Part shown: positions 8,563 to 63,314 of the stretch, one piece after another
Layout: every line of letters starts with the position of its first letter
Position numbering within the stretch: the stretch's first letter is position 1
NCBI GenBank assembly: GCA_963783255.1
Contig: CAWAMP010000022.1
Location: 566,761 to 630,760, forward strand
Reading direction: 5' to 3'
Length of the DNA stretch: 64,000 bases
Origin: an uncultured Acidobacteriota bacterium
GTDB lineage: Bacteria > Acidobacteriota > Vicinamibacteria > Vicinamibacterales > Fen-181
Notes under the pieces: generated by a model
Database searches by the model: none
Told to the model about the DNA's origin: nothing
Seen by the model: the letters and a program-made list of their open reading frames with translations, nothing else
Program-made: the position numbers and the translations under genes

Positions 8563-8675
8563 GATCTTGCGACGTTGCGATCTTGCGAACTGGTTATCCC
8601 GCGAGCTGGGATCTCACGGAATGGAGGCTGGCCGAAGTCCTTCGCAAGATCTCGACTTCGCACGATCGCAAGGTG
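8563..8675. repeat. 8-nt-period array, locus B, arranged as two inverted arms between convergent genes
   Basis: Arm 1 is GATCTTGC GACGTTGC GATCTTGC GAACTGGT (8563-8594). Arm 2 is AGTCCTTC GCAAGATC TCGACTTC GCACGATC GCAAGGTG (8636-8675). GATCTTGCGA at 8563-8572 is the exact reverse complement of 8642-8651. Confidence 0.85.
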
Positions 8676-10569: not shown

Positions 10570-11626
10570 CTACTTCTTCGGCAACGCAGCCTGCTTCTTC
10601 CGGAACTCGTCGCGCGCCTTCATCGCCTCGTCGAACGCATCGGCGGGCACGAAGTCGCCGCGGACCTTTCCGTACGCGGTCTCGGCGGTCTTCCGCCACA
10701 GCTCCTTCGTCCTGGCATCGACCGGCACGACGGTCAGCCCGGCGGTCTTCATCGCGGCCACGTCCTTCTCGCCGCTCTGCCGGATGTCGGCCTGGAGCTT
10801 CGCGCCCGCCTCCTGCATCGCCTTGAGCAGGGCGGGCTTGATGTCGGCGGGGATCTGCGCCCACGTTTCCTTCTTGATGACCGTCCCGCCGAGCAGCAGC
10901 GCCCAGTTGAGGTCGGTCATGAACTTCGCCCTCTCGTAGTAGCGCCCGATCTGCGCCACCTGCGGCGACATCGAGCACGCCTCGAAGAGGCCGGTCGAGA
11001 GACCCATCGGGAGGTCGGCGAGGGCGGCGGGACGAGGGTTGAAGCCCGCCGTCTTCCAGAATCTCGAGCGACTTCGGGTCGCCCGCCCACTGGAACAGCT
11101 TGAGCTTTCTGAGGTCGTCCGGCGTCGCGACGGGCCTGGTCGTGAAGAAGTGGAGCCAGCCGGCGTCGGCCCAGTTCAGCATCAGGAAGCCCTTGGCGTC
11201 GATGGCCGTCTCGAGCCGCGACCTCAGCCGGTCGAGGACGAAGTAGGCCTCCTCGTAGGAGTCGTACGCCATCGGGATGCTCACCGCGTAGACCGACTTC
11301 TCGACCTCCGCGATCCCGACCGAGGTGAGCACGGCCCCCTGCAGTTCGCCGAGCCGCATCGCCGCCACGACCTCCGGCTCGTCACCCTTCGTGCCGCCAC
11401 CATAGAGAATCACCCTCACCCTGCCGTTCGAGAGCTTGCTCCACCTGTCGGCCACTTCCTTCAGCACGAGGAACCAGGACGAGTTGGTGGGCACCGAGGT
11501 GGCCATCTTGATCGTGATTGTCTGGGCGGACGCCGCCGAGGGGAGGGTAAGCGTGCCAACCAGGATCCCGGCCGCAACGACCCACGGGGTCCACCGGGGC
11601 CGTCGAACGTTCATTCTGGGGTTCAT
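10570..11626 (-). pseudogene. TRAP transporter solute-binding subunit (DctP/TatP type), split by a +1 frame error
   Basis: The N-terminal 190 aa lie in ORF 10553..11626 (signal peptide, ITIKMATSVP, GELQGAVLTS). The C-terminus lies in ORF 10570..11007. Deleting one A at 11054-11055 (minus sense GGAAGA) gives SLEILETAGFNPRPAALADLPMGLSTG, and 1056 nt gives 351 aa. Confidence 0.8.
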
Positions 11627-19459: not shown

Positions 19460-19508
19460 TCCGCTGCCGGCCATCCGCTGACAGCTAACAGCTGACCGCT
19501 GCCAGCCG
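19446..19508. repeat. weak 7-nt-period tract (NNNGCTG units) spanning two convergent stop codons
   Basis: Units read TCAGCGG ACCGTGA TCCGCTG CCGGCCA TCCGCTG ACAGCTA ACAGCTG ACCGCTG CCAGCCG. The hairpin CAGCGGA-CCGTGA-TCCGCTG (19447-19466) carries the hydrolase TGA in its loop. Confidence 0.4.
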
Positions 19509-23903: not shown

Positions 23904-24773
23904 CTACTGATTCGTCACGTCAGCGGCCAGCTTCCAGCCGTCGGCCAGTCGCTTCCAGACGTGGAGGTAATAGCCGCGCCTGGGATCTCCCCGCTCGGCC
24001 GCCTCGGTGTAGGCGCCGTAGGTGAAGCCCAGGTCGCCCGCCTGTGAGGCCTCTGCGTGTGAAGGTTGCAGCGTCAGGCGCAGCGGCGCGGACGGCGTGG
24101 CGGACAGGACCGCCACCCGGCCTTCGAGTGGCCTGCTGCCCTGTCGATAGACCAGCACGTCCTTCGTCGACCACTCCCCGTAGGTCGCCTGGAGCCCCCG
24201 CTCGACGGCCAGCGCGGCGAACGCCGCGTCGGCGGCACGGAGTTCATCCGCGGATACCTTCGGCCCCGGCTTCCCCTTCGGTTGAGCGGCCCGAACGTCC
24301 GCCCGCTTGAACGCGCGGGGCCGCAGCGGGCCGGAGGCGGGGCCCTCAATCCCGAAATCGGCCGCGACCTTCCACTGGACATCACCCCGCCACCGCCACA
24401 CCGAGAAGAACCATCCGGTTCGAGGCGCCCCGTCGGACGCCCTCGGCGTCGACACATAGGGGCCGGTCGTGTAGCCGAGGTCCCCCGACGCCGCCACGTC
24501 GCCGGTCGTCGGCTCCCAGTCGAGCGTACGGACCGGCGGACCGGCCGGAGCCGGCTGCTTCCGCAGGGCGTCCTTCGTGTTCTCCGGCCCCGGGCTGAAC
24601 CATACGCCATCGTCGGCGAAGTTCGCCAGGAACGCTTCGCGCTGCGACGTCCCCACGCTCATCCGGGCGAACTCCCGTTCGGCCTTCACCAGCGAGTCCA
24701 TCGAGCCGGAGCCTGCCTGCGCCCCCACCGCCACCGCTGCAAGCGCCCCCGCCATCCACAGCCTTCTTGCCAT
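23904..24773 (-). CDS. secreted protein with two NTF2/SnoaL-like (DUF4440-type) halves
   Basis: It has a signal peptide and an internal duplication (..GDLGYTTGPY..WFFSVWRWRGD.WKVAADF and ..GDLGFTYGAY..YYLHVWKRLADGWKLAADV). Confidence 0.5.
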   Translation of the reverse strand: MARRLWMAGALAAVAVGAQAGSGSMDSLVKAEREFARMSVGTSQREAFLANFADDGVWFSPGPENTKDALRKQPAPAGPPVRTLDWEPTTGDVAASGDLGYTTGPYVSTPRASDGAPRTGWFFSVWRWRGDVQWKVAADFGIEGPASGPLRPRAFKRADVRAAQPKGKPGPKVSADELRAADAAFAALAVERGLQATYGEWSTKDVLVYRQGSRPLEGRVAVLSATPSAPLRLTLQPSHAEASQAGDLGFTYGAYTEAAERGDPRRGYYLHVWKRLADGWKLAADVTNQ

Positions 24774-31846: not shown

Positions 31847-32517
31847 TGCGGGGGGCCATTTTCGACCTCGACGGCACGATCGTGGACAACATGCCGGTCC
31901 ACGCCGATGCCTTCGCGATCTTCGTCGAGCGTCACGGGCTCCGCCCGCTGACGCTCGACGACCGCAGGCGGCTCGACGGCCGCCGCAACCGCGACATCTT
32001 CCCCGATCTTCTCGGGCGCGAGTTGACCGACGCCGAGCAGGAGGCCTTCGCGGACGAAAAGGAGGCGCTCTACCGGGAGCTGTCGGTCGGGCGCCTGGCG
32101 CCGGCCGCCGGTTTCGTCAGGTTGCTCGACAGCCTGGCGGCCAGCGGCATCCCGGTCGCGGTGGCCACCTCGGCCCCTCCCGACAACGTGAATCACACGC
32201 TCACCGAGCTCGGCCTGGCCTCGCGCCTGACGTCGGTCGTTCGAAGCGACCAGGTGCCGCGGGGCAAGCCGTTCCCGGACGTGTTCCTGGCGGCGGCCGA
32301 GCGGCTGGGGGTGCCGGCGGCTGACTGCGTGGCGTTCGAGGACGCGCCGATCGGCATCGTCGCGGCGCGGACAGCCGGCATGACGACGGTGGCCATCGGC
32401 AGCAGCTTCTCGGCGGACGTCTTCCTTGCCCCTGAAGTCGGGGCAGACGTCGTCGTGAAGGACTTCGAGGAGTACCTGGACGGACCGGGACGGTGGCTCA
32501 CGCGCCCGAAAATGTAG
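31846..32517 (+). CDS. HAD-superfamily hydrolase (beta-phosphoglucomutase-like subfamily IA)
   Basis: HAD motifs are FDLDGT (motif I), VATSA (motif II) and K...FEDAPIG (motifs III/IV). Confidence 0.85.
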   Translation: MRGAIFDLDGTIVDNMPVHADAFAIFVERHGLRPLTLDDRRRLDGRRNRDIFPDLLGRELTDAEQEAFADEKEALYRELSVGRLAPAAGFVRLLDSLAASGIPVAVATSAPPDNVNHTLTELGLASRLTSVVRSDQVPRGKPFPDVFLAAAERLGVPAADCVAFEDAPIGIVAARTAGMTTVAIGSSFSADVFLAPEVGADVVVKDFEEYLDGPGRWLTRPKM

Positions 32518-32607
32518 AACTGGGAATGTAGAATTGAGAAGGGAGCCTCCCTACTGCTCAGTTCCTGATTCCCAGTTCCCAATACTCAATACTCAATCTT
32601 CCAATTC
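32510..32607. repeat. 7-nt-period array, locus G (14 phased heptamers, dyad centred on GGGAG-C-CTCCC)
   Basis: Units read AAATGTA GAACTGG GAATGTA GAATTGA GAAGGGA GCCTCCC TACTGCT CAGTTCC TGATTCC CAGTTCC CAATACT CAATACT CAATCTT CCAATTC. They fill the spacer between convergent stops at 32517 and 32609. Confidence 0.8.
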
Positions 32608-42333: not shown

Positions 42334-42552
42334 CTAGCGGGCGCGGAAGGTGATGATCCCTCGCACGAGGTCGTAGGGAGAGACGCTGACGGTCACGCGG
42401 TCGCCGGTGACGACCTTGATGCGGAACCGGCGCATCCGGCCGCTCAGCTGGGCGAGAACCTCGTGCCCGGCGTCGGCCTGGACGCGGTAGAGCCCGCCGC
42501 CGTGGATGGAAGTGACCGTGCCCTGGATGTCGAGAAGATCCTCTTTGCTCAA
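42334..42552 (-). CDS. infA: translation initiation factor IF-1
   Basis: The TTG start at 42552 gives a 72-aa product, (M)SKEDLLDIQGTVTSIHGGGLYRVQADAGHEVLAQLSGRMRRFRIKVVTGDRVTVSVSPYDLVRGIITFRAR. This is canonical IF-1 length and sequence. Confidence 0.9.
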   Translation of the reverse strand: MSKEDLLDIQGTVTSIHGGGLYRVQADAGHEVLAQLSGRMRRFRIKVVTGDRVTVSVSPYDLVRGIITFRAR

Positions 42553-42596
42553 AGTGCGATGCCCTTCGTAGCAGTGGCCAGAATCGGAAGAAGTTC

Positions 42597-42699
42597 GATC
42601 TTGCGGTCTTGCGATCTTGCGAAGTACGCATGGGCTGCTGGACGCCCCCGACCGCGCGATTGCACGTCGCACGATCGCACAATCGTACTTCGCAAGATG
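42597..42699. repeat. 8-nt-period array, locus C, two inverted arms in the infA leader / 3' region of the RRM gene
   Basis: Arm 1 is GATCTTGC GGTCTTGC GATCTTGC GAAGTACG (42597-42628). Arm 2 is GCACGTC GCACGATC GCACAATC GTACTTC GCAAGATG (42662-42699). ATCTTGCGAAGTACG at 42614-42628 is the exact reverse complement of 42684-42698. Confidence 0.85.
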
Positions 42700-42709
42700 C
42701 GACTACGAA

Positions 42710-43021
42710 CTACCAGCGCGGCTCGCGCCGCCGGTTGCCGCCACCGCCGCCGCCGAAACCGCCCGAGCGCTCTGGGCGCGGCTTCGCCTCGTTGACCGTC
42801 AGGCTGCGGCCGCCGAGATCGCGGCCGTGCATCTGCGCGATGGCGTTCTGCGCGTCCGCCTCGGACGCCATCTCGACGAACGCAAAGCCGCGCGCCCTGC
42901 CCGTCGCCATGTCGCGGACGACGTTCACCGATGCCACCTGTCCCGCCGTGCCGAAGAGGTCCTGCAGGTCCTGCTCGGTCGTGTTGAACGGGATGTTGCC
43001 AACGTAGAGTCTCATGCCCAT
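42710..43021 (-). CDS. RRM-type RNA-binding protein with C-terminal Gly/Arg tail
   Basis: RNP motifs are LYVGNIPF (RNP2) and RGFAFVEM (RNP1). The tail is SGGFGGGGGGNRRR. GAGGAG lies 10 nt before the ATG at 43021. Confidence 0.9.
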   Translation of the reverse strand: MGMRLYVGNIPFNTTEQDLQDLFGTAGQVASVNVVRDMATGRARGFAFVEMASEADAQNAIAQMHGRDLGGRSLTVNEAKPRPERSGGFGGGGGGNRRREPRW

Positions 43022-46260: not shown

Positions 46261-46309
46261 GGGCGGGGCCTCCCACTACAGGATTTCGGTGGGAGAAGGA
46301 CAGGACTTC

Positions 46310-46349
46310 AATCTTGCGATCGTGCGAAGTGGCGAACTGGCGAACTGGC
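46310..46349 (-). repeat. 8-nt-period array, locus D (5 phased octamers)
   Basis: The plus strand reads AATCTTGC GATCGTGC GAAGTGGC GAACTGGC GAACTGGC. This is the same unit vocabulary as locus E. It lies 50 nt upstream of the FHA-GGDEF start. Confidence 0.85.
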
Positions 46350-46354
46350 GGCCG

Positions 46355-46418
46355 GCGACTGGCGGCTTGCGGCGGTGTCACGGGCGACAGCGTGACCCGG
46401 CCGCAAGCCGCCAGTCGC
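46355..46418 (-). terminator. long GC hairpin after the M28 peptidase gene
   Basis: GCGACTGGCGGCTTGCGGC (46355-46373) is the exact reverse complement of 46400-46418, a 19-bp stem. The 26-nt loop contains a further GTCACG/CGTGAC pair. It starts 7 nt after the stop at 46425. There is no U-tract. Confidence 0.75.
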
Positions 46419-46424
46419 GAGCCG

Positions 46425-48410
46425 CTACTTGATCGGCGTGAGCTTGCCCCAGCCCTGCTCCTTCACCGTCTTCATGTCGTTGACCAGCTGCTCGGGCAGC
46501 TTCTCGTTCAGCTTCGGGCGCGTGGCCGCGTTGCCCAGGACCCAGCTGACCGCGTACACCGTCTTGGTCACGGCCTCGAGTTTGTCGTAGTCGATCCTCT
46601 CCGCGCTGTCGGTCACGCGGTGGTAGTCGCTGTGCAGCCCGTCGCAGAAGAAGGCGATCGGAATCCCCATCTTGACGAAGTTGTAGTGGTCGCTGCGGGA
46701 GAAGATCCGCTGGCCGCTCGTGCCCGGACCGAGGTTGTCGTGCGTCGCGTCCGGCACTACCGTGTCGTAGAAATCGCTGAGCTTCATCTTCAGGTAGCGG
46801 CCGTTCACGTCCGCCACGATCTTCCCGAGCTCCGCACTCGCGATGCGGGGACCGACGACGAACACCTCGTTCGGCTCGGCCAGCTTGTAGGATGGCGGGT
46901 CGACGTAGCCGGGTGTCTTGCTGCGGCCGACCATGTCCATGTTCAGATCCGCGACGACCTTGGTGATGTCGACCGGCGGGAACTGGTTGAAGTACTGCGA
47001 GCCCCAGAGCCCCTTCTCTTCGCCTGCCATCCACAGGAAGATGATGGTCCGCTTCGCGCGCCGGCCCTTCGCGGCACCGGTCGCGTACGCTCTCGCCATG
47101 GCCATCATCGCGACACATCCCGACGCATCGTCATCGGCGCCGTTGTAGACGCCGTCGCCGTTCGCGTCGGCAGCGGCGAGGCCGTTGTGATCGAGGTGGG
47201 CGCTGATCACGACGTACTCGTTCTTCAGCACCGGGTCGCTCCCTTCGACCATGGCCATGACGTTGTAGGCGTACTTCTTGTCGGAGGTGACCGCGAGCTT
47301 GAGCGTCACCTTCTTGTCCGCCGCGAGGTCGAACGAGTCGAGCCTGGCGTTGGCCGCGGCGCCGTTGAACACCTGCGCGCCGGTCAGCTTCTCGCCCTGG
47401 AACAGGCCGTTGATGAGCTCGACGCCTGCCATGATCGCCGGCACGGAAGCGGGCCGGTTCGCCTGGAACTTCACGACCTGGTAGGACGGGCCGTTGAGCG
47501 AGGCGCGGGGCGCGGTCGGCGTCGCCATGCCGGAGAGTTGCTGGAACGTGGGAATCGTGATGATGCCGACGGCGCCGTTCCTCGCGGCGTAGGTCTGCGG
47601 CGTCGTAAAGTCGGTGTTCTCGACGCCGAGCGGGTTGGGCGGCCCGCCGCGGCCACCGCCGCCACGCCCGCCGGCGCCCGCGCCCGCCGCGGCCTGGGCT
47701 GCCGCGAGCTCGGCGGGCAGGCCGGCCACCACCATCACCTTCCCCCGAACGTCGATGCCCTCGTACGGATTCGTCTTCGTCTTGTTGATGACGTAGCCGT
47801 TCCCGACGAAGACGAGGTTGGCCGACGAGATCTCGGCCGGCGTCACGCCGCCGCCCCCGCGCCCACCGCCGCCTCCGCCCGCCGTCCAGTCCTTACCGTA
47901 CTCGAACGCGCGAGGTACGGCGGGCGGCACCGGCGCCGGCGCGGCTGCGCGGGCTCCTGGCACGGCCGCCGCGCCCGCCCCGGCGGGTGCACCCGCGCCG
48001 CCTCGCCCGCCCCGTCCACCGGCCGCGGCCAGCGTGATCGACAGCTTCATGTTCGGGGTGTCGTTCTGGCTGCTGATCAGGTCGAACGGCACCAGATAGG
48101 CCTGGAGCGGTCCGTCGGCCGGCGCGACGCTGCGAGCCGGCGTAAGACCCCATTCCTTCATGTGGCTGGCGATATAGAGCGCTGCCGTGTCGTATCCGCG
48201 CGAAGGCAGATTGCGGCCCTCGAGTTGGTCGGAGGAGAGGAAGTACTCGTAGGTCTTCAGTTCGTCCTGGGTGATCGCGTCGGCGTTGCCGAACGCCTTG
48301 CCGGACGCCTTGATGTACGGCGACTTGGCCTGCTGAGCCGCCACGCCTGTCCACATGAGCAGCGCCAGCAGCCCGATGAGAAGTGAGGTGGAACCAGTGA
48401 TTCGACGCAT
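46425..48410 (-). CDS. secreted M28-family aminopeptidase with PA-like insert and Gly/Arg/Ala low-complexity segments
   Basis: It has a signal peptide. M28 metal-ligand blocks are VISAHLDHNG and YNGADDDASG. Length is 661 aa. Confidence 0.85.
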   Translation of the reverse strand: MRRITGSTSLLIGLLALLMWTGVAAQQAKSPYIKASGKAFGNADAITQDELKTYEYFLSSDQLEGRNLPSRGYDTAALYIASHMKEWGLTPARSVAPADGPLQAYLVPFDLISSQNDTPNMKLSITLAAAGGRGGRGGAGAPAGAGAAAVPGARAAAPAPVPPAVPRAFEYGKDWTAGGGGGGRGGGGVTPAEISSANLVFVGNGYVINKTKTNPYEGIDVRGKVMVVAGLPAELAAAQAAAGAGAGGRGGGGRGGPPNPLGVENTDFTTPQTYAARNGAVGIITIPTFQQLSGMATPTAPRASLNGPSYQVVKFQANRPASVPAIMAGVELINGLFQGEKLTGAQVFNGAAANARLDSFDLAADKKVTLKLAVTSDKKYAYNVMAMVEGSDPVLKNEYVVISAHLDHNGLAAADANGDGVYNGADDDASGCVAMMAMARAYATGAAKGRRAKRTIIFLWMAGEEKGLWGSQYFNQFPPVDITKVVADLNMDMVGRSKTPGYVDPPSYKLAEPNEVFVVGPRIASAELGKIVADVNGRYLKMKLSDFYDTVVPDATHDNLGPGTSGQRIFSRSDHYNFVKMGIPIAFFCDGLHSDYHRVTDSAERIDYDKLEAVTKTVYAVSWVLGNAATRPKLNEKLPEQLVNDMKTVKEQGWGKLTPIK

Positions 48411-53223: not shown

Positions 53224-53305
53224 GTCCGCAGTCATCCGTTCTGAGTTCGGAGTTCGGAGTTCTGAGTTCTGAGTTGTGAGTGGTGAGTGGTGAGGCGAGA
53301 GGAAC
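53222..53305 (+). repeat. 7-nt-period array, locus F (12 phased heptamers filling the whole spacer from stop to start codon)
   Basis: Units read GAGTCCG CAGTCAT CCGTTCT GAGTTCG GAGTTCG GAGTTCT GAGTTCT GAGTTGT GAGTGGT GAGTGGT GAGGCGA GAGGAAC, then AC-ATG (53308). Confidence 0.9.
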
Positions 53306-55967: not shown

Positions 55968-58133
55968 CTACTGCACGCCCATCTCCTTCAGCAGGAACCC
56001 GGCCTTGCCGACCTTCTCGGTGACCCAGAGCACGTAGCGGATGTCGACGGCGATCGAGCGGCTGTAGGCCTCGTTCCACGCGTAGTCGTTGATGGTGGCG
56101 CCCCAGGCGCGATCGAAGTTCACGCCGACCAGTTCGCCCTTCGCGTTCATCACCGGACTGCCCGAATTCCCGCCCGTCGTGTCGGTGTTGTAGAGAATCG
56201 CCACCGGCAGCTCGTTGACCTTCGGCAGCCGGTACCGGCCGTAGTCCTTCGCCTTGAACAGGTCGCGGACCGCCTGCGGCGTCGCGTACGGATACTCGTC
56301 GCGCGTCTTCTGCATGACGCCGGTCAGCGTCGTGATCGGCGTGAGGTGGGTCGCGTCGGCCGGCGAGTAGCCGCGAATGTGTCCGTAGGTGAACCGCAGC
56401 GTGCTGTTGGCGTCGGGCACGAAGTCCTTCTGGAGGAACGCCTGCTTGACGTCGATGAGCAGCGCCGAGAGCTTCGACAGCTCGGCGGCGCGCCGCTGGC
56501 GGGTGTCGCGCAGCTTCTGGAGAAGCGGAGCCACGTCCTTGACGAAGTTCACGAACGGATCGTCGAGCCTCGCCATCTCCTCCGGGGTCCTGCCGATGGC
56601 GCTCGCCAGCCCCTCGGGCGTCTTCAGGGTCGTCGCCGCGAGCGCCTCGTCCACCGCCCTCCCGATGTTCTGGTCCGAGAAGTCGCCGCTCAAGCGGTCG
56701 TCGACCGGGGCAATCCGCTGGTCCTTCGGCAGACGGGCCGCCATCGCGAGCATCTTGCGCAGGAACAGCCTCTCGGCCGGCTCGTGGTAGTTGGCGAAGT
56801 TGGCCGCCGACGCCTTCCTCGTGTCGGCCAGCGCGCCATCCCGGTACGGCGCCGCGCGCTCGGCGCTCGGCCGGGCCATCTCGCGGCTCGCCTCGAACAC
56901 GGTGGTCGCCAGCCGGACGAGCTGGGACATCCCTGACGACGTGCCCGAGAAGGTATCGAGCGCCAGCTCGTACTGCGAGCGGCTCGTCATGTCGGCGTAG
57001 ACCCTCCCGGTCTCTTCGAGCACCGTCCCGTACGCCGCCTTGCGCCGCGGGTTCGCGTCGATGAACTTCTGGAGCGCCGCTTCCTCCTGCCGCTTCGAAG
57101 CCACCAGCCCGAGCCGCCCCATGCCCACGAGCTTCCCGCGGTAGTTCTTCATCGTGTTGGCGAGCCCTCTGATCCGCGCGTCGAACTTGAGCGCCGTCCC
57201 GCGATCCGCGCGGCCCAGCTCCTCCATCGTCCGGATCTGCCACTCGTTGAGATCGGCGACGAACGGCATGCGCACGTCCTCCTCGTACGCCATGTAGAAG
57301 GAGGTCTGGTGCCGGTAGGTACGGCCGGGATACCCGAGGATGAAGACGAAGTCCTCCTCGTTGACGCCCTGCGGGTTCACCTTGAGGAACCGCTTCGGGT
57401 GATACGGCACGTTGGTCACCGCGTAGTCCGCCGGCTTGCCGTCGGCCGCGGCGTACGCGCGCAGGAACGAGAAGTCTCCGGTGTGGCGCGGCCACACCCA
57501 GTTGTCGTCTTCGCCGCCGAACTCGCCGATCGAGCGCGGCGGCACGTACGCCAGCCGGACGTCTCTGAGCGTGGTCGAGATGAACATCAGGTACGACTTC
57601 CCGGGCAGCATCTCGGAAATGCCGATGGACTTGCCCGGCAGGTCCTTCTCGGCCGCCCTCGTCAATTCGGCGATGCGCCCTTCGATCGCCTTCGCGCGTC
57701 CGATCGGGTCCATCGTGTCCGTCACGGCGCTCATCACCTGGGCGGTCACGTCGCGCATCTGCTCGGTGATGCGCGCCGTCATGCCGCGGGCGCGGATCTC
57801 GTCGGAACGCGTGGCGGCGAGGAACCCGTTGGTCAGGTAGTCCCTCTCCACCGTGCTCACGGCCTGCACGGCGCTGAACACGCAGTGGTGATTGGTGATG
57901 ATCAGGCCGTCGGGCGAAACGAACGACGCGCTGCACCCGCCGAGGCTGACGATGCCCTCGATGAGGCTCGTGCCCTTCGGGTTGTAGATCTCGTCGGTCT
58001 CGATCTTCAGCCCCTTTTCCTTGAGCTTGAGGCCCGCGATCGACGTAATCGGGTACATCCCCTCTTCGCCGATCGTCGGGCGGAGAAGGGCCGCACACAG
58101 GATGATGGCAACGGCAAGCGCGCGTCGAGGCAT
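55968..58133 (-). CDS. S46-family dipeptidyl-peptidase (DPP7/DPP11 type)
   Basis: GGCSASFVSPDGLIITNHHC is the catalytic His block, and GGNSGSPV is the Ser block. The ATG at 58133 has GAAGGAG 7 nt upstream. Confidence 0.9.
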   Translation of the reverse strand: MPRRALAVAIILCAALLRPTIGEEGMYPITSIAGLKLKEKGLKIETDEIYNPKGTSLIEGIVSLGGCSASFVSPDGLIITNHHCVFSAVQAVSTVERDYLTNGFLAATRSDEIRARGMTARITEQMRDVTAQVMSAVTDTMDPIGRAKAIEGRIAELTRAAEKDLPGKSIGISEMLPGKSYLMFISTTLRDVRLAYVPPRSIGEFGGEDDNWVWPRHTGDFSFLRAYAAADGKPADYAVTNVPYHPKRFLKVNPQGVNEEDFVFILGYPGRTYRHQTSFYMAYEEDVRMPFVADLNEWQIRTMEELGRADRGTALKFDARIRGLANTMKNYRGKLVGMGRLGLVASKRQEEAALQKFIDANPRRKAAYGTVLEETGRVYADMTSRSQYELALDTFSGTSSGMSQLVRLATTVFEASREMARPSAERAAPYRDGALADTRKASAANFANYHEPAERLFLRKMLAMAARLPKDQRIAPVDDRLSGDFSDQNIGRAVDEALAATTLKTPEGLASAIGRTPEEMARLDDPFVNFVKDVAPLLQKLRDTRQRRAAELSKLSALLIDVKQAFLQKDFVPDANSTLRFTYGHIRGYSPADATHLTPITTLTGVMQKTRDEYPYATPQAVRDLFKAKDYGRYRLPKVNELPVAILYNTDTTGGNSGSPVMNAKGELVGVNFDRAWGATINDYAWNEAYSRSIAVDIRYVLWVTEKVGKAGFLLKEMGVQ

Positions 58134-58157
58134 GAACGGGCTCCTTCTCACAAGGAT

Positions 58158-58241
58158 GGCTCCTGGCTCTTGGCTCTCGGCTCCCGGCTCTCGGCAGAGA
58201 GCCAGACGCGGCCTGAGGCCGAAGGTCGAGAGCCCAGAGCC
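58158..58241. repeat. 7-nt-period array, locus H (12 phased heptamers with inverted arms)
   Basis: Units read GGCTCCT GGCTCTT GGCTCTC GGCTCCC GGCTCTC GGCAGAG AGCCAGA CGCGGCC TGAGGCC GAAGGTC GAGAGCC CAGAGCC. There is a perfect hairpin, GGCTCTC-GGCA-GAGAGCC (58186-58203). Confidence 0.85.
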
Positions 58242-58245
58242 GGTA

Positions 58246-58674
58246 TTATCGTGCAGGTCGGATGCGGAGGATCCCCAACTGGGCGAGCAGGCCGGTAAAG
58301 TCGTAGAAGCGCCGCTCCGCGGCGATGAGCAGATCGGGGTTCAGATCGAACAGCGACACGCCGTCGAACGAGCACCGCTTGCCCGTCCCGGCAAGCCCCA
58401 TGAAGCTGCCTCTGTGGGTGGCGCTGACCGAGAAGGCGACCGCCAGTCGGTGACCGTCTGTGATGGGTGTGTCGAAGCCGATCTGCCAGTCGGGGAAGAT
58501 CTCGAACAGCGTTTCATACGTGCCGCGAATCGCCAGCTGCCCCTCGACGCGGGCGAACATGGGGCTGTCGATCACACCGTTCTCGGCATGGTCGAGCGAG
58601 AGGGCCACCGCGTCGCGATGATTCCACCCGGCCGTGTGGCGCTCGATGAATGACGTGATCGGGTCGGTGGTCAT
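58246..58674 (-). CDS. SnoaL-like ester cyclase family protein
   Basis: A 142-aa protein with ITSFIERHTAGWNHRD, FEIFPDWQ and the THRGSFMGLAGTGK blocks typical of ester cyclases. Confidence 0.7.
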   Translation of the reverse strand: MTTDPITSFIERHTAGWNHRDAVALSLDHAENGVIDSPMFARVEGQLAIRGTYETLFEIFPDWQIGFDTPITDGHRLAVAFSVSATHRGSFMGLAGTGKRCSFDGVSLFDLNPDLLIAAERRFYDFTGLLAQLGILRIRPAR

Positions 58675-58845
58675 CGCCCTCTCCCATCTTCAATGGCGGT
58701 GGGTGCCTGATGGTCGCCCGGGATGGATGTGAGTATACCGCGATTGCGGCGGCTACGCCTGCAGGAGGCAGCCGGCTTCGAATTGACGCATAATGGCGGT
58801 TTCGGCCCAGCTGTTCTGAAGCCGATTCCGGACAAAGAGGACATC

Positions 58846-62739: not shown

Positions 62740-62745
62740 TTCATA

Positions 62746-62777
62746 ATGATACCATGATTTCATGATATCATCATGAT
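62746..62777 (-). promoter_or_regulatory. AT-rich putative operator/promoter of the toxin-antitoxin pair
   Basis: This is the only AT-rich patch in the window. ATGAT occurs four times, starting at 62746, 62754, 62762 and 62773. The palindrome ATGATATCAT spans 62762-62771. It lies 7 nt upstream of the antitoxin ATG. Confidence 0.4.
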
Positions 62778-62782
62778 GTCGC

Positions 62783-63160: not shown

Positions 63161-63206
63161 ATGCCCGGATCAACGTGCAAGGACGGGGCCGGGGGGAGAA
63201 TCCAGC

Positions 63207-63286
63207 GATCTTGCGATCTTGCGATCTTGCGATCTTGCGATCTGGCGAACTGGCGAACTGGCGAACTGGCAATCGTGCGAAGTTGC
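63207..63286 (-). repeat. 8-nt-period array, locus E (10 phased octamers, best copy)
   Basis: The plus strand reads GATCTTGC x4, GATCTGGC, GAACTGGC x3, AATCGTGC, GAAGTTGC with no phase slip. It lies 47 nt upstream of the yraN start and 29 nt downstream of the ribF stop. Confidence 0.95.
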
Positions 63287-63314
63287 GAACCGGGAGGGAG
63301 CGGTCCGTCGACGG

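Follow-up and report, generated by a model that had tools for sequence, protein, structure and literature searches.

Array H, a heptanucleotide repeat of probable microsatellite origin in the SnoaL-S46 gene junction of Vicinamibacterales bacteria

The junction between the SnoaL-like and S46 peptidase genes

Array H is a short array of heptanucleotide repeats between two genes of an uncultured Acidobacteriota bacterium of the order Vicinamibacterales. It lies in a stretch of 64,000 nucleotides, here called the window, taken from contig CAWAMP010000022.1 (positions 566,761 to 630,760). Both genes are on the minus strand. The upstream cistron (58246-58674) encodes a SnoaL-like protein (Pfam SnoaL, E = 2.3e-16) and ends, judging from its translation, with a TAA stop codon at 58246-58248. 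The downstream cistron (55968-58133) encodes an S46 peptidase (Pfam Peptidase_S46, E = 8e-198), with an ATG start codon at 58131-58133 and an N-terminus that is conserved in orthologues. Between the two genes lies a spacer of 112 nt (58134-58245). It holds the array, which is non-coding, and the Shine-Dalgarno (SD) box of the S46 gene, AAGGAGCC, at 58139-58146. These gene calls and this SD box agree with an earlier description of the locus made from the letters alone, referred to below as the sequence-only reading.

In the sense of the mRNA, the junction reads TAA-TACC-GGCTCTG-GGCTCTC-G-ACCTT-CGGCC-TCA-GGCCG-CGTCT-GGCTCTC-TGCC-GAGAGCC-GGGAGCC-GAGAGCC-AAGAGCC-AGGAGCC-ATCCTTGTGAG-AAGGAGCC-CGTTC-ATG. 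It contains five direct units with the consensus RRGAGCC and three inverted units with the consensus GGCTCTS. The direct units GAGAGCC GGGAGCC GAGAGCC AAGAGCC AGGAGCC occupy 58158-58192, where the plus strand reads GGCTCCT GGCTCTT GGCTCTC GGCTCCC GGCTCTC. Tandem Repeats Finder (TRF) reports them with period 7, 4.4-4.9 copies and 87-88% matches. The array ends 11 nt from the SD box and 24 nt from the S46 start codon. The heptamer AGGAGCC of the SD box matches RRGAGCC and has the same letters as the gene-proximal unit (58158-58164). The dimer pattern RRGAGCCRRGAGCC, allowing at most one mismatch, has five matches in the window where 0.9 are expected, and every one of them is at array H. The sequence-only reading had filled the spacer with twelve phased heptamers. 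Its five plus-strand units are real, but the only other recognisable copies are the three inverted ones. The in-phase units 6-10 (GGCAGAG AGCCAGA CGCGGCC TGAGGCC GAAGGTC) are not repeats, and one of the inverted copies, the middle one (58197-58203), does not keep the phase.

Direct and inverted units can pair with each other. Two inverted units, GGCTCTG GGCTCTC followed by G, were located by the repeat finder as a left arm at 58227-58241, which begins 4 nt past the stop codon and forms the 5' half of an outer stem. The 3' half of this stem is formed by direct units 3 and 4: GGCTCTTGGCTCTCG (58165-58179) pairs with CGAGAGCCCAGAGCC (58227-58241) with one mismatch, so that the nested stems described in the sequence-only reading are present in the window. 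The perfect hairpin GGCTCTC-GGCA-GAGAGCC of that reading (58186-58203) is recovered as well. In the mRNA it is an inner hairpin, GGCUCUC-UGCC-GAGAGCC, made of the third inverted and the first direct unit. Folding predicts in addition a small central hairpin, CGGCC-UCA-GGCCG (58209-58221), and a weak local hairpin, UCCUU-GUGAG-AAGGA (58142-58156), that overlaps the SD box. As a whole, the sense RNA of the spacer is predicted to form a branched hairpin of -66 kcal/mol, with a z-score of -3.73 relative to shuffles. The corresponding values are -70.8 (z -3.55) for the antisense RNA and -29.6 (z -4.54) for single-stranded DNA, and all three fold far better than shuffled sequences.

The SnoaL-like gene followed by the S46 gene is a conserved pair among the relatives compared. 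A sigma-70 promoter scan and a U-tract terminator scan called no site in the spacer. Upstream of the SnoaL-like gene, the sequence GGTATACTCAC (58729-58739, minus strand) contains a TATACT that is likely to be the -10 element of an operon promoter. It is conserved as GCTATACTCGC in the related locus L127 (relatives carry handles of this kind below), amid upstream DNA that has otherwise diverged. Since the spacer has no promoter-like or terminator-like site and TATACT lies upstream of the SnoaL-like gene, the two genes are probably carried on one bicistronic transcript.

A -10-like GATAAT overlaps the stop codon itself, within the context CGATAATACC (58242-58250, minus strand). It is found in the long-spacer lineages (the window, L127, L161 and L082), while L170 has GATGAT and the array-less relatives have CGCTAAAGG. 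GATAAT was rejected as a promoter, as it has no -35 partner and is not called by the promoter scan. A coding reading of the spacer was likewise discarded. The S46 frame is open through the spacer, yet the sole upstream start is a GTG at 58151 without an SD box, and the ATG and the N-terminus that follows it are conserved in orthologues. The spacer contains no ATG and no start codon preceded by an SD box. In a search of the window against Rfam 15, only tRNAs reach the gathering thresholds; the spacer gives generic hairpin matches below threshold, the best being the mir-3160 hairpin, at 28.6 bits against a threshold of 80.

The junction in related genomes

The closest genome matches of the S46 protein of the window, with identities of at most 83%, are Acidobacteriota metagenome-assembled genomes (MAGs), several of which are labelled Vicinamibacterales. 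In L001, L002, L081, L083, L084, L101 and L162-L169, the SnoaL stop codon is directly followed by the SD heptamer AGGAGCC and the ATG, leaving spacers of 12-13 nt with the same SD box as in the window. For instance, the junction of L163, TAAAGGAGCCTGTTCATG, reads CGCTAA-AGGAGCC-TGTTC-ATG. The long insert is found in four lineages only. These are the window, L127 (a Joint Genome Institute contig, the same contig as L171), L161 (an 803-kb MAG contig that is syntenic with the window) and L170.

In a tree of the concatenated SnoaL and S46 genes, the window, L127 and L161 form a group with the array-less L163 as its sister. L170 was left out of this tree; by SnoaL distance it is nearest to L127 and L161. 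A tree of the first 618 nt of the S46 gene alone did not separate the array-bearing clade, and adding the SnoaL gene did. Because the array-bearing lineages group together and their sister lacks the array, the insert arose once in this clade, between TAA and AGGAGCC. By the same comparison, the SD heptamer AGGAGCC is older than the array. A spacer of 48 nt in L082 (TAC GGTCTTC GGTCCC GGTCCC ...) is about 67% alignable by eye to the left arm of the window, but it was set aside as of doubtful homology, L082 belonging to another clade.

The units have turned over since. L127 has, like the window, five direct units (GAGAGCC CAGAGCC CAGAGCC AAGAGCC AAAAGCC) and an inverted arm. L161 has six, namely GAGAACC three times, GAGAGCC, and AAGAGCC twice, and also retains the inverted arm. 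L170 has seven (GAGGGCC AAGAGCC CAGAGCC AAGAGCC GAGAGCC GAGTGCC GAGAGCC), and its inverted arm is absent. Variant units that recur within one lineage, such as the three GAGAACC of L161 and the two CAGAGCC of L127, indicate homogenisation by slippage or conversion. Three more contigs, all from one sample and used here for their gene gaps alone, have SnoaL genes in the 90% cluster of L161 and L127; their gaps are 112, 112 and 119 nt. The sequence-only reading had called the units rich in GGAG. This is true of the window, where two of the five direct units contain GGAG, and not of L127, L161 and L170, in which no unit does.

The predicted structures vary in a similar manner. The left arm of L161 is identical to that of the window, as is the outer stem, while L127 differs in the arm by one substitution. 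The central hairpin is CGGCC-UUC-GGCCG in L161 and CGGCU-UUC-GGCCG in L127, with a G.U pair in place of C-G. The pairing of the hairpin over the SD box is kept in both through U.G pairs or a shift in register. The inner hairpin is weaker in L127, which has GGCUAUC, and in L161, where the GAGAACC units weaken pairing and the left arm carries no compensating change. The z-score of the sense spacer is -3.7 in the window, -1.9 in L161, -1.0 in L127 and +1.5 in L170, which lacks the inverted arm and has no stable fold. A two-sequence consensus fold contains compatible single changes, such as U-G for C-G in both the central hairpin and the small one over the SD box; its only double change lies outside the array. 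This predicted fold gives too little support for a case of covariation. By the same predictions, the nested stem structure is not conserved among the four orthologous arrays. The unpaired probability predicted for the SD box is 0.16-0.47 in array-bearing mRNAs and 0.04-0.50 in array-less ones, with no consistent shift.

Divergence of the spacer can be compared with that of four-fold-degenerate sites in the flanking genes. Between L127 and L161 the spacer differs by 11.6% plus one unit indel, and four-fold sites by 10.7% (Fisher p 0.85). The values are 13.4% and 22.5% between the window and L127 (p 0.06), and 8.9% and 20.4% between the window and L161 (p 0.01). The rate of change of the spacer thus ranges from roughly one half of that of four-fold sites up to parity, and any constraint on it is weak at most. 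Comparison of the spacer across relatives, a check that the sequence-only reading had proposed, speaks against a conserved leader or terminator device, since most relatives lack the insert and neither the stems nor the GGAG units are conserved.

Two further observations concern the S46 gene and its SD region in relatives. In L161, the S46 gene carries a single frameshift near 11430: the tblastn match changes from frame 1 to frame 2 there, and identity is 87-90% both before and after. Either this is a sequencing error or the S46 gene has recently become a pseudogene in this array-bearing lineage. About 90 nt 5' of the S46 start of L003, at 2895-2925, the sequence AGGAGCC(C)GTTTGCC occurs in two additional copies that look like an SD box and start region; the S46 gene there has its own promoter. 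They are a further sign of duplication in the SD region.

Origin of the array and alternative explanations

Array H is probably a heptanucleotide long simple-sequence repeat (LSSR) that was born in a tight operon junction, most plausibly from the SD heptamer, and has since been kept by microsatellite dynamics. The ancestral junction was TAA-AGGAGCC-N5-ATG, with the SnoaL stop codon abutting the S46 SD box. Next, about 100 nt were gained between the stop codon and the SD box in one small clade of Vicinamibacterales. In this model, the direct units RRGAGCC would have come from slipped-strand duplication seeded on AGGAGCC, and the inverted, anti-SD-like units GGCTCTS from template switching within one strand or slippage next to a small hairpin. 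Since then, units have been gained, lost and homogenised within each lineage, with change at a roughly neutral rate.

The array would be carried in the SnoaL-S46 bicistronic mRNA, which in the window is predicted to form its strong branched stem-loop 4 nt past the stop codon. Termination and re-initiation would then be separated, so that translational coupling is lost and a stable hairpin stands at the cistron boundary. Most likely the array is a young product of slippage whose effects on the mRNA are only incidental. No conserved, sequence-specific regulatory role is evident.

Under this model array H would be a local case of a lineage-wide mutational tendency toward arrays of 7-8 nt in non-coding DNA. 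The sequence-only reading had expected similar arrays elsewhere, and they are plentiful. The window contains nine period-7/8 arrays of at least three copies, compared with 0.3 in dinucleotide shuffles. By inspection they are non-coding, except for 19477-19506, which overlaps a stop codon, and 24529-24555, which lies inside a crudely called open reading frame (ORF). Vicinamibacterales-type loci (293 kb in all) contain 15 such arrays per 100 kb, about 8 times the density in the S46 loci of other phyla (1.9 per 100 kb over 529 kb). The commonest period in the lineage is 7, and nearly every array has its own, locus-specific unit. A significant reverse-complement partner occurs within 130 nt in 11 of 28 arrays, or about 40%. 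The palindromic arrays of Vicinamibacterales typically start 0-6 nt past a stop codon, often between convergent genes, and form long stems with z-scores of -2.7 to -5.7. Canonical hairpin-plus-U terminators show no enrichment in the window (5 found, 8.4 expected). Where orthologous arrays can be compared, the central hairpin is conserved and the repeat arms differ. An example is L010, with a one-sided array of 9.6 copies of AGTTGTT, and L007, with both arms. Array H fits this class, having a small central hairpin, unequal arms and a locus-specific unit.

Several observations weigh against the slippage model. The seeding by the SD box is proposed from similarity alone, and the 11 nt between the array and the box, ATCCTTGTGAG, are not unit-like. 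The left arm is nearly invariant, with one change in 15 nt across three lineages, which is the clearest sign of constraint. The pairing of the central hairpin survives through its G.U change, the fold of the window is very stable, and its outer stem is shared with L161. The direct array is still there after about 13% divergence of SnoaL DNA. The two deeper comparisons put spacer divergence at only about half that of four-fold sites, so the spacer may be under some constraint.

A further point comes from the junction between an SSF transporter gene and an M20 peptidase gene, where a period-7 array ends at the SD box in four lineages with differing units. These are GTTCTGA grading to GTGGTGA in the window (53238-53294), TTGAGAA in L161 (14683-14719) and L001 (7226-7261), and AGAATCC in L002 (6396-6420). 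In L161 the TGA stop codon of the upstream gene lies inside the array. That an array is kept there over deeper divergence, despite a change of unit, could mean that selection acts on the array itself.

If the spacer is under selection, it may act as an intercistronic RNA stem-loop, comparable to repetitive extragenic palindromic (REP) sequences and bacterial interspersed mosaic elements (BIMEs) or to a terminator without a U-tract. It would protect the 3' end of the SnoaL message, attenuate read-through or mark a processing site, and so set the ratio of SnoaL to S46, with the heptamer arms lengthening the stem. This alternative is unlikely, though several results favour it: the strong fold 4 nt past the stop codon, with an outer stem that L161 retains; the similar placement and stability of the other palindromic arrays of the order; the lack of enrichment of hairpin-plus-U terminators; and a spacer less diverged than four-fold sites in two of the three comparisons. 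However, L170 has seven units without an inverted arm and folds worse than shuffles, the fold of L127 is not significant, and the three GAGAACC units of L161 loosen the pairing with an uncompensated left arm. Most relatives do without the spacer altogether. An efficient terminator there would also silence the S46 gene, which is intact and conserved, because that gene has no promoter of its own in the spacer. Likewise, L010 and L007 combine a conserved central hairpin with arms of very different extent, including a one-sided array. A broader and more speculative form of the idea is that Vicinamibacterales build post-stop and intercistronic hairpin stems from self-expanding heptamer microsatellites. 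Slippage would then be a rheostat that tunes stem length, and with it read-through, protection of mRNA 3' ends and coupling of cistrons, gene by gene, and array H would be a young example, recently born from an SD box at a junction where stop codon and box had overlapped. This seems doubtful for now. The way in which the lineage assembles hairpin stems from heptamers is of more interest than array H by itself.

Improbable, too, is a translational leader. In it, the purine-rich, SD-like units would serve as ribosome standby or decoy sites, as anti-anti-SD partners that absorb the anti-SD-like units of the left arm, or as the landing platform of an RNA-binding protein, a role that has been suggested for the TAACTGA repeats of Beggiatoaceae. 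TAACTGA repeats offer a precedent, standing a few nucleotides 5' of start codons (PMC4679880). Array H lies 11 nt upstream of the SD box, its proximal unit in the window equals the SD heptamer and two units contain GGAG. Left-arm GGCUCUS can pair with the SD box, and each lineage has more direct units (5-7) than inverted ones (0-3). On the other hand, GGAG is missing from the units of the other three lineages, and the predicted accessibility of the SD box does not differ consistently with and without an array. The unit is also confined to this locus and its orthologues within the 64-kb window and 171 loci, and a dedicated trans-acting binder is unlikely because of this. A contingency (phase-variation) locus, with rapid gain and loss of heptamers switching S46 expression, is very improbable. 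Unit number does vary among relatives (5, 5, 6 and 7), and gaps of 112 and 119 nt occur together in one metagenome sample beside near-identical SnoaL genes. But array H is neither in a reading frame nor between promoter elements, with no promoter-like site in or around it, and changes in unit number shift nothing obvious because of this position. Moreover, the window and L127 share unit number and spacer length at 22% four-fold-site divergence, and the product is a housekeeping-type secreted peptidase rather than a surface antigen. Least probable of all is the insertion of a mobile palindromic element, either a miniature inverted-repeat transposable element (MITE) or a REP-like one. Compared with the sister lineage, the insert is a discrete block of about 98 nt whose ends are inverted, and GGCTCNG-type units occur at non-orthologous sites in L001, L112 and L103. 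Yet neither the window nor 20 kb of the syntenic contig of the sister species contains a second copy, and a target-site duplication is lacking. Being built of tandem heptamers in varying number, the arms fit growth in place, and L170 has a direct array without an inverted end.

Known repeat systems resemble array H in part. REP/BIME palindromes in Escherichia coli operons, such as malE-malF, are intercistronic and form stable mRNA stem-loops able to protect the upstream mRNA. Array H is also an imperfect palindrome in an intercistronic spacer, and if functional it would work similarly. Unlike REPs, which form one sequence family with hundreds of copies, marked by a conserved 5' tetranucleotide and tied to REP-associated tyrosine transposases (RAYTs, Y1 transposases), it is single-copy in the window and L161, and its arms are tandem heptamers; neither an RRGAGCC dimer nor GGCTCNGGGCTC occurs beyond chance elsewhere in these two. 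An intrinsic terminator would carry a U-tract, and the hairpin of array H is followed by AGGAGCCAUCCUUGUGAG, without one. Mycobacterial interspersed repetitive units (MIRUs) are intercistronic units of 40-100 bp, variable in copy number between strains, with short ORFs that overlap the flanking stop and start codons. Array H resembles them as a tandem repeat of variable copy number in an intercistronic region of an operon, but its unit is 7 nt and the spacer has no relay ORF. Quasipalindrome template-switch mutagenesis, in which one arm of an imperfect hairpin serves as the template for the other, is a process rather than a family of elements. It could generate the inverted heptamers of array H, although this is not demonstrated here.

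The closest counterparts are other LSSRs. In repeat-rich bacteria, heptanucleotide units are the commonest LSSR class, and polymerase slippage has been proposed as their source (Mrazek, Guo and Shah 2007, as related in PMC4679880 and PMC4692102). Array H has all the features of the LSSR5-11 class, being a tandem repeat of 7-nt units in non-coding DNA, longer than chance, in a free-living host, with a unit number that varies between relatives. It departs from that class in having a locus-specific unit that matches the SD box of the adjacent gene, and inverted copies that make a nested palindrome. The heptamers GGGAATC of Xanthomonas and GGGGAYT of Nostoc (Rehm et al. 2015, PMC4692102) are intergenic and near ORF ends, with some inverted pairs able to form stem-loops. 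They occupy the same gene junctions in related species while varying in length and sequence, and they are transcribed, with no function found (PMC4692102). Each is one G-rich unit used genome-wide, with G-quadruplex potential, whereas Vicinamibacterales have a different unit at each locus and RRGAGCC lacks G-tracts. In marine Beggiatoaceae, forward TAACTGA heptamers lie shortly 5' of start codons, also within operons, and a role in translation has been proposed (MacGregor 2015, PMC4679880). This single unit is used at about 170 sites. Most of the repeats stop 1 nt short of the start codon, and SD boxes are weak or absent (PMC4679880). In contrast, array H has a unique unit, stops 24 nt short of the ATG and precedes a strong SD box.

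What differs from the described cases is thus the SD-like, locus-specific unit, the nested palindrome in an operon junction and the host lineage; the literature searched holds no mention of Vicinamibacterales as a host of such repeats. With an array-less sister state and four diverged descendants, array H offers a stepwise, dated view of how a tight stop/SD junction may become a structured spacer of 100 nt through the birth of a microsatellite. It adds Vicinamibacterales, an abundant soil order, to the bacteria with heptamer-rich non-coding DNA, here with locus-specific units that often form palindromes beside stop codons. It is relevant to the questions of why long bacterial repeats favour units of 7 nt and of whether such repeats have any effect. 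In practical terms, these arrays are candidate markers for strain typing, and likely hot spots of assembly and gene-calling errors in MAGs of the group.

Other repeats in the window and in related loci

Arrays of the GGCTCNG or NRRAGCC type occur after the S46 or M20 stop codon at sites that are not orthologous to array H, in L103 (2350-2485), L001 (6011-6039) and L112 (2783-2812). The one in L103 forms a hairpin of -84 kcal/mol (z -4.6). They were considered as kin of array H, and a relation could not be demonstrated.

The octamer TCGCAAGA, grading into CAGTTCGC, forms a family with at least six intergenic sites, among them 37-126, 8563-8667, 42596-42698, 46312-46366 and 63205-63288 of the window. 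Its dimer has 18 near-matches, compared with 0.67 expected. The octamers are sense-oriented just 5' of the SSF transporter, infA, GGDEF and YraN/UPF0102 genes. Inverted pairs of them, which build long hairpins, are found as well. At the orthologue of the YraN site, L161 has just 3.8 units of GTTCGCAC. With one unit in one orientation, the TCGCAAGA family resembles the TAACTGA system and is a closer analogue of it than array H; by this analogy, it could have a trans-acting binder.

The longest inverted repeat of the window, at 46295-46440 on the minus strand, has 40-nt arms that are 85% complementary. It begins at the stop codon of the upstream gene and has a predicted energy of -75 kcal/mol (z -5.6); between it and a GGDEF gene come CAGTTCGC/TCGCAAGA units. 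Between convergent genes at 32517-32600, heptamer-like hairpin arms (GAACTGG GAATGTA GAATTGA; z -4.5) are followed by a G-free tract with CAATACT repeats. Short repeats of the ATCATGA type (ATGATATC, 3.2 copies) at 62740-62780 lie just 5' of a small gene that precedes a PIN-domain gene and are conserved in L161 (3920-3950). They have the look of an operator in a toxin-antitoxin promoter, and less that of an array made by slippage.

In the more distant relative L006 (1025-1671 and 2700-2960), a tandem repeat of about 47 nt fills the region upstream of the S46 gene, and there is a series of 8-nt arrays (CGGGACTC) at intervals of about 80 nt. Finally, a gene for a glycine-rich RNA-binding protein with an RRM domain (Pfam RRM_1, E = 7.6e-25) lies directly 5' of infA in the window (42336-43021, minus strand), with a palindromic octamer array between the two.

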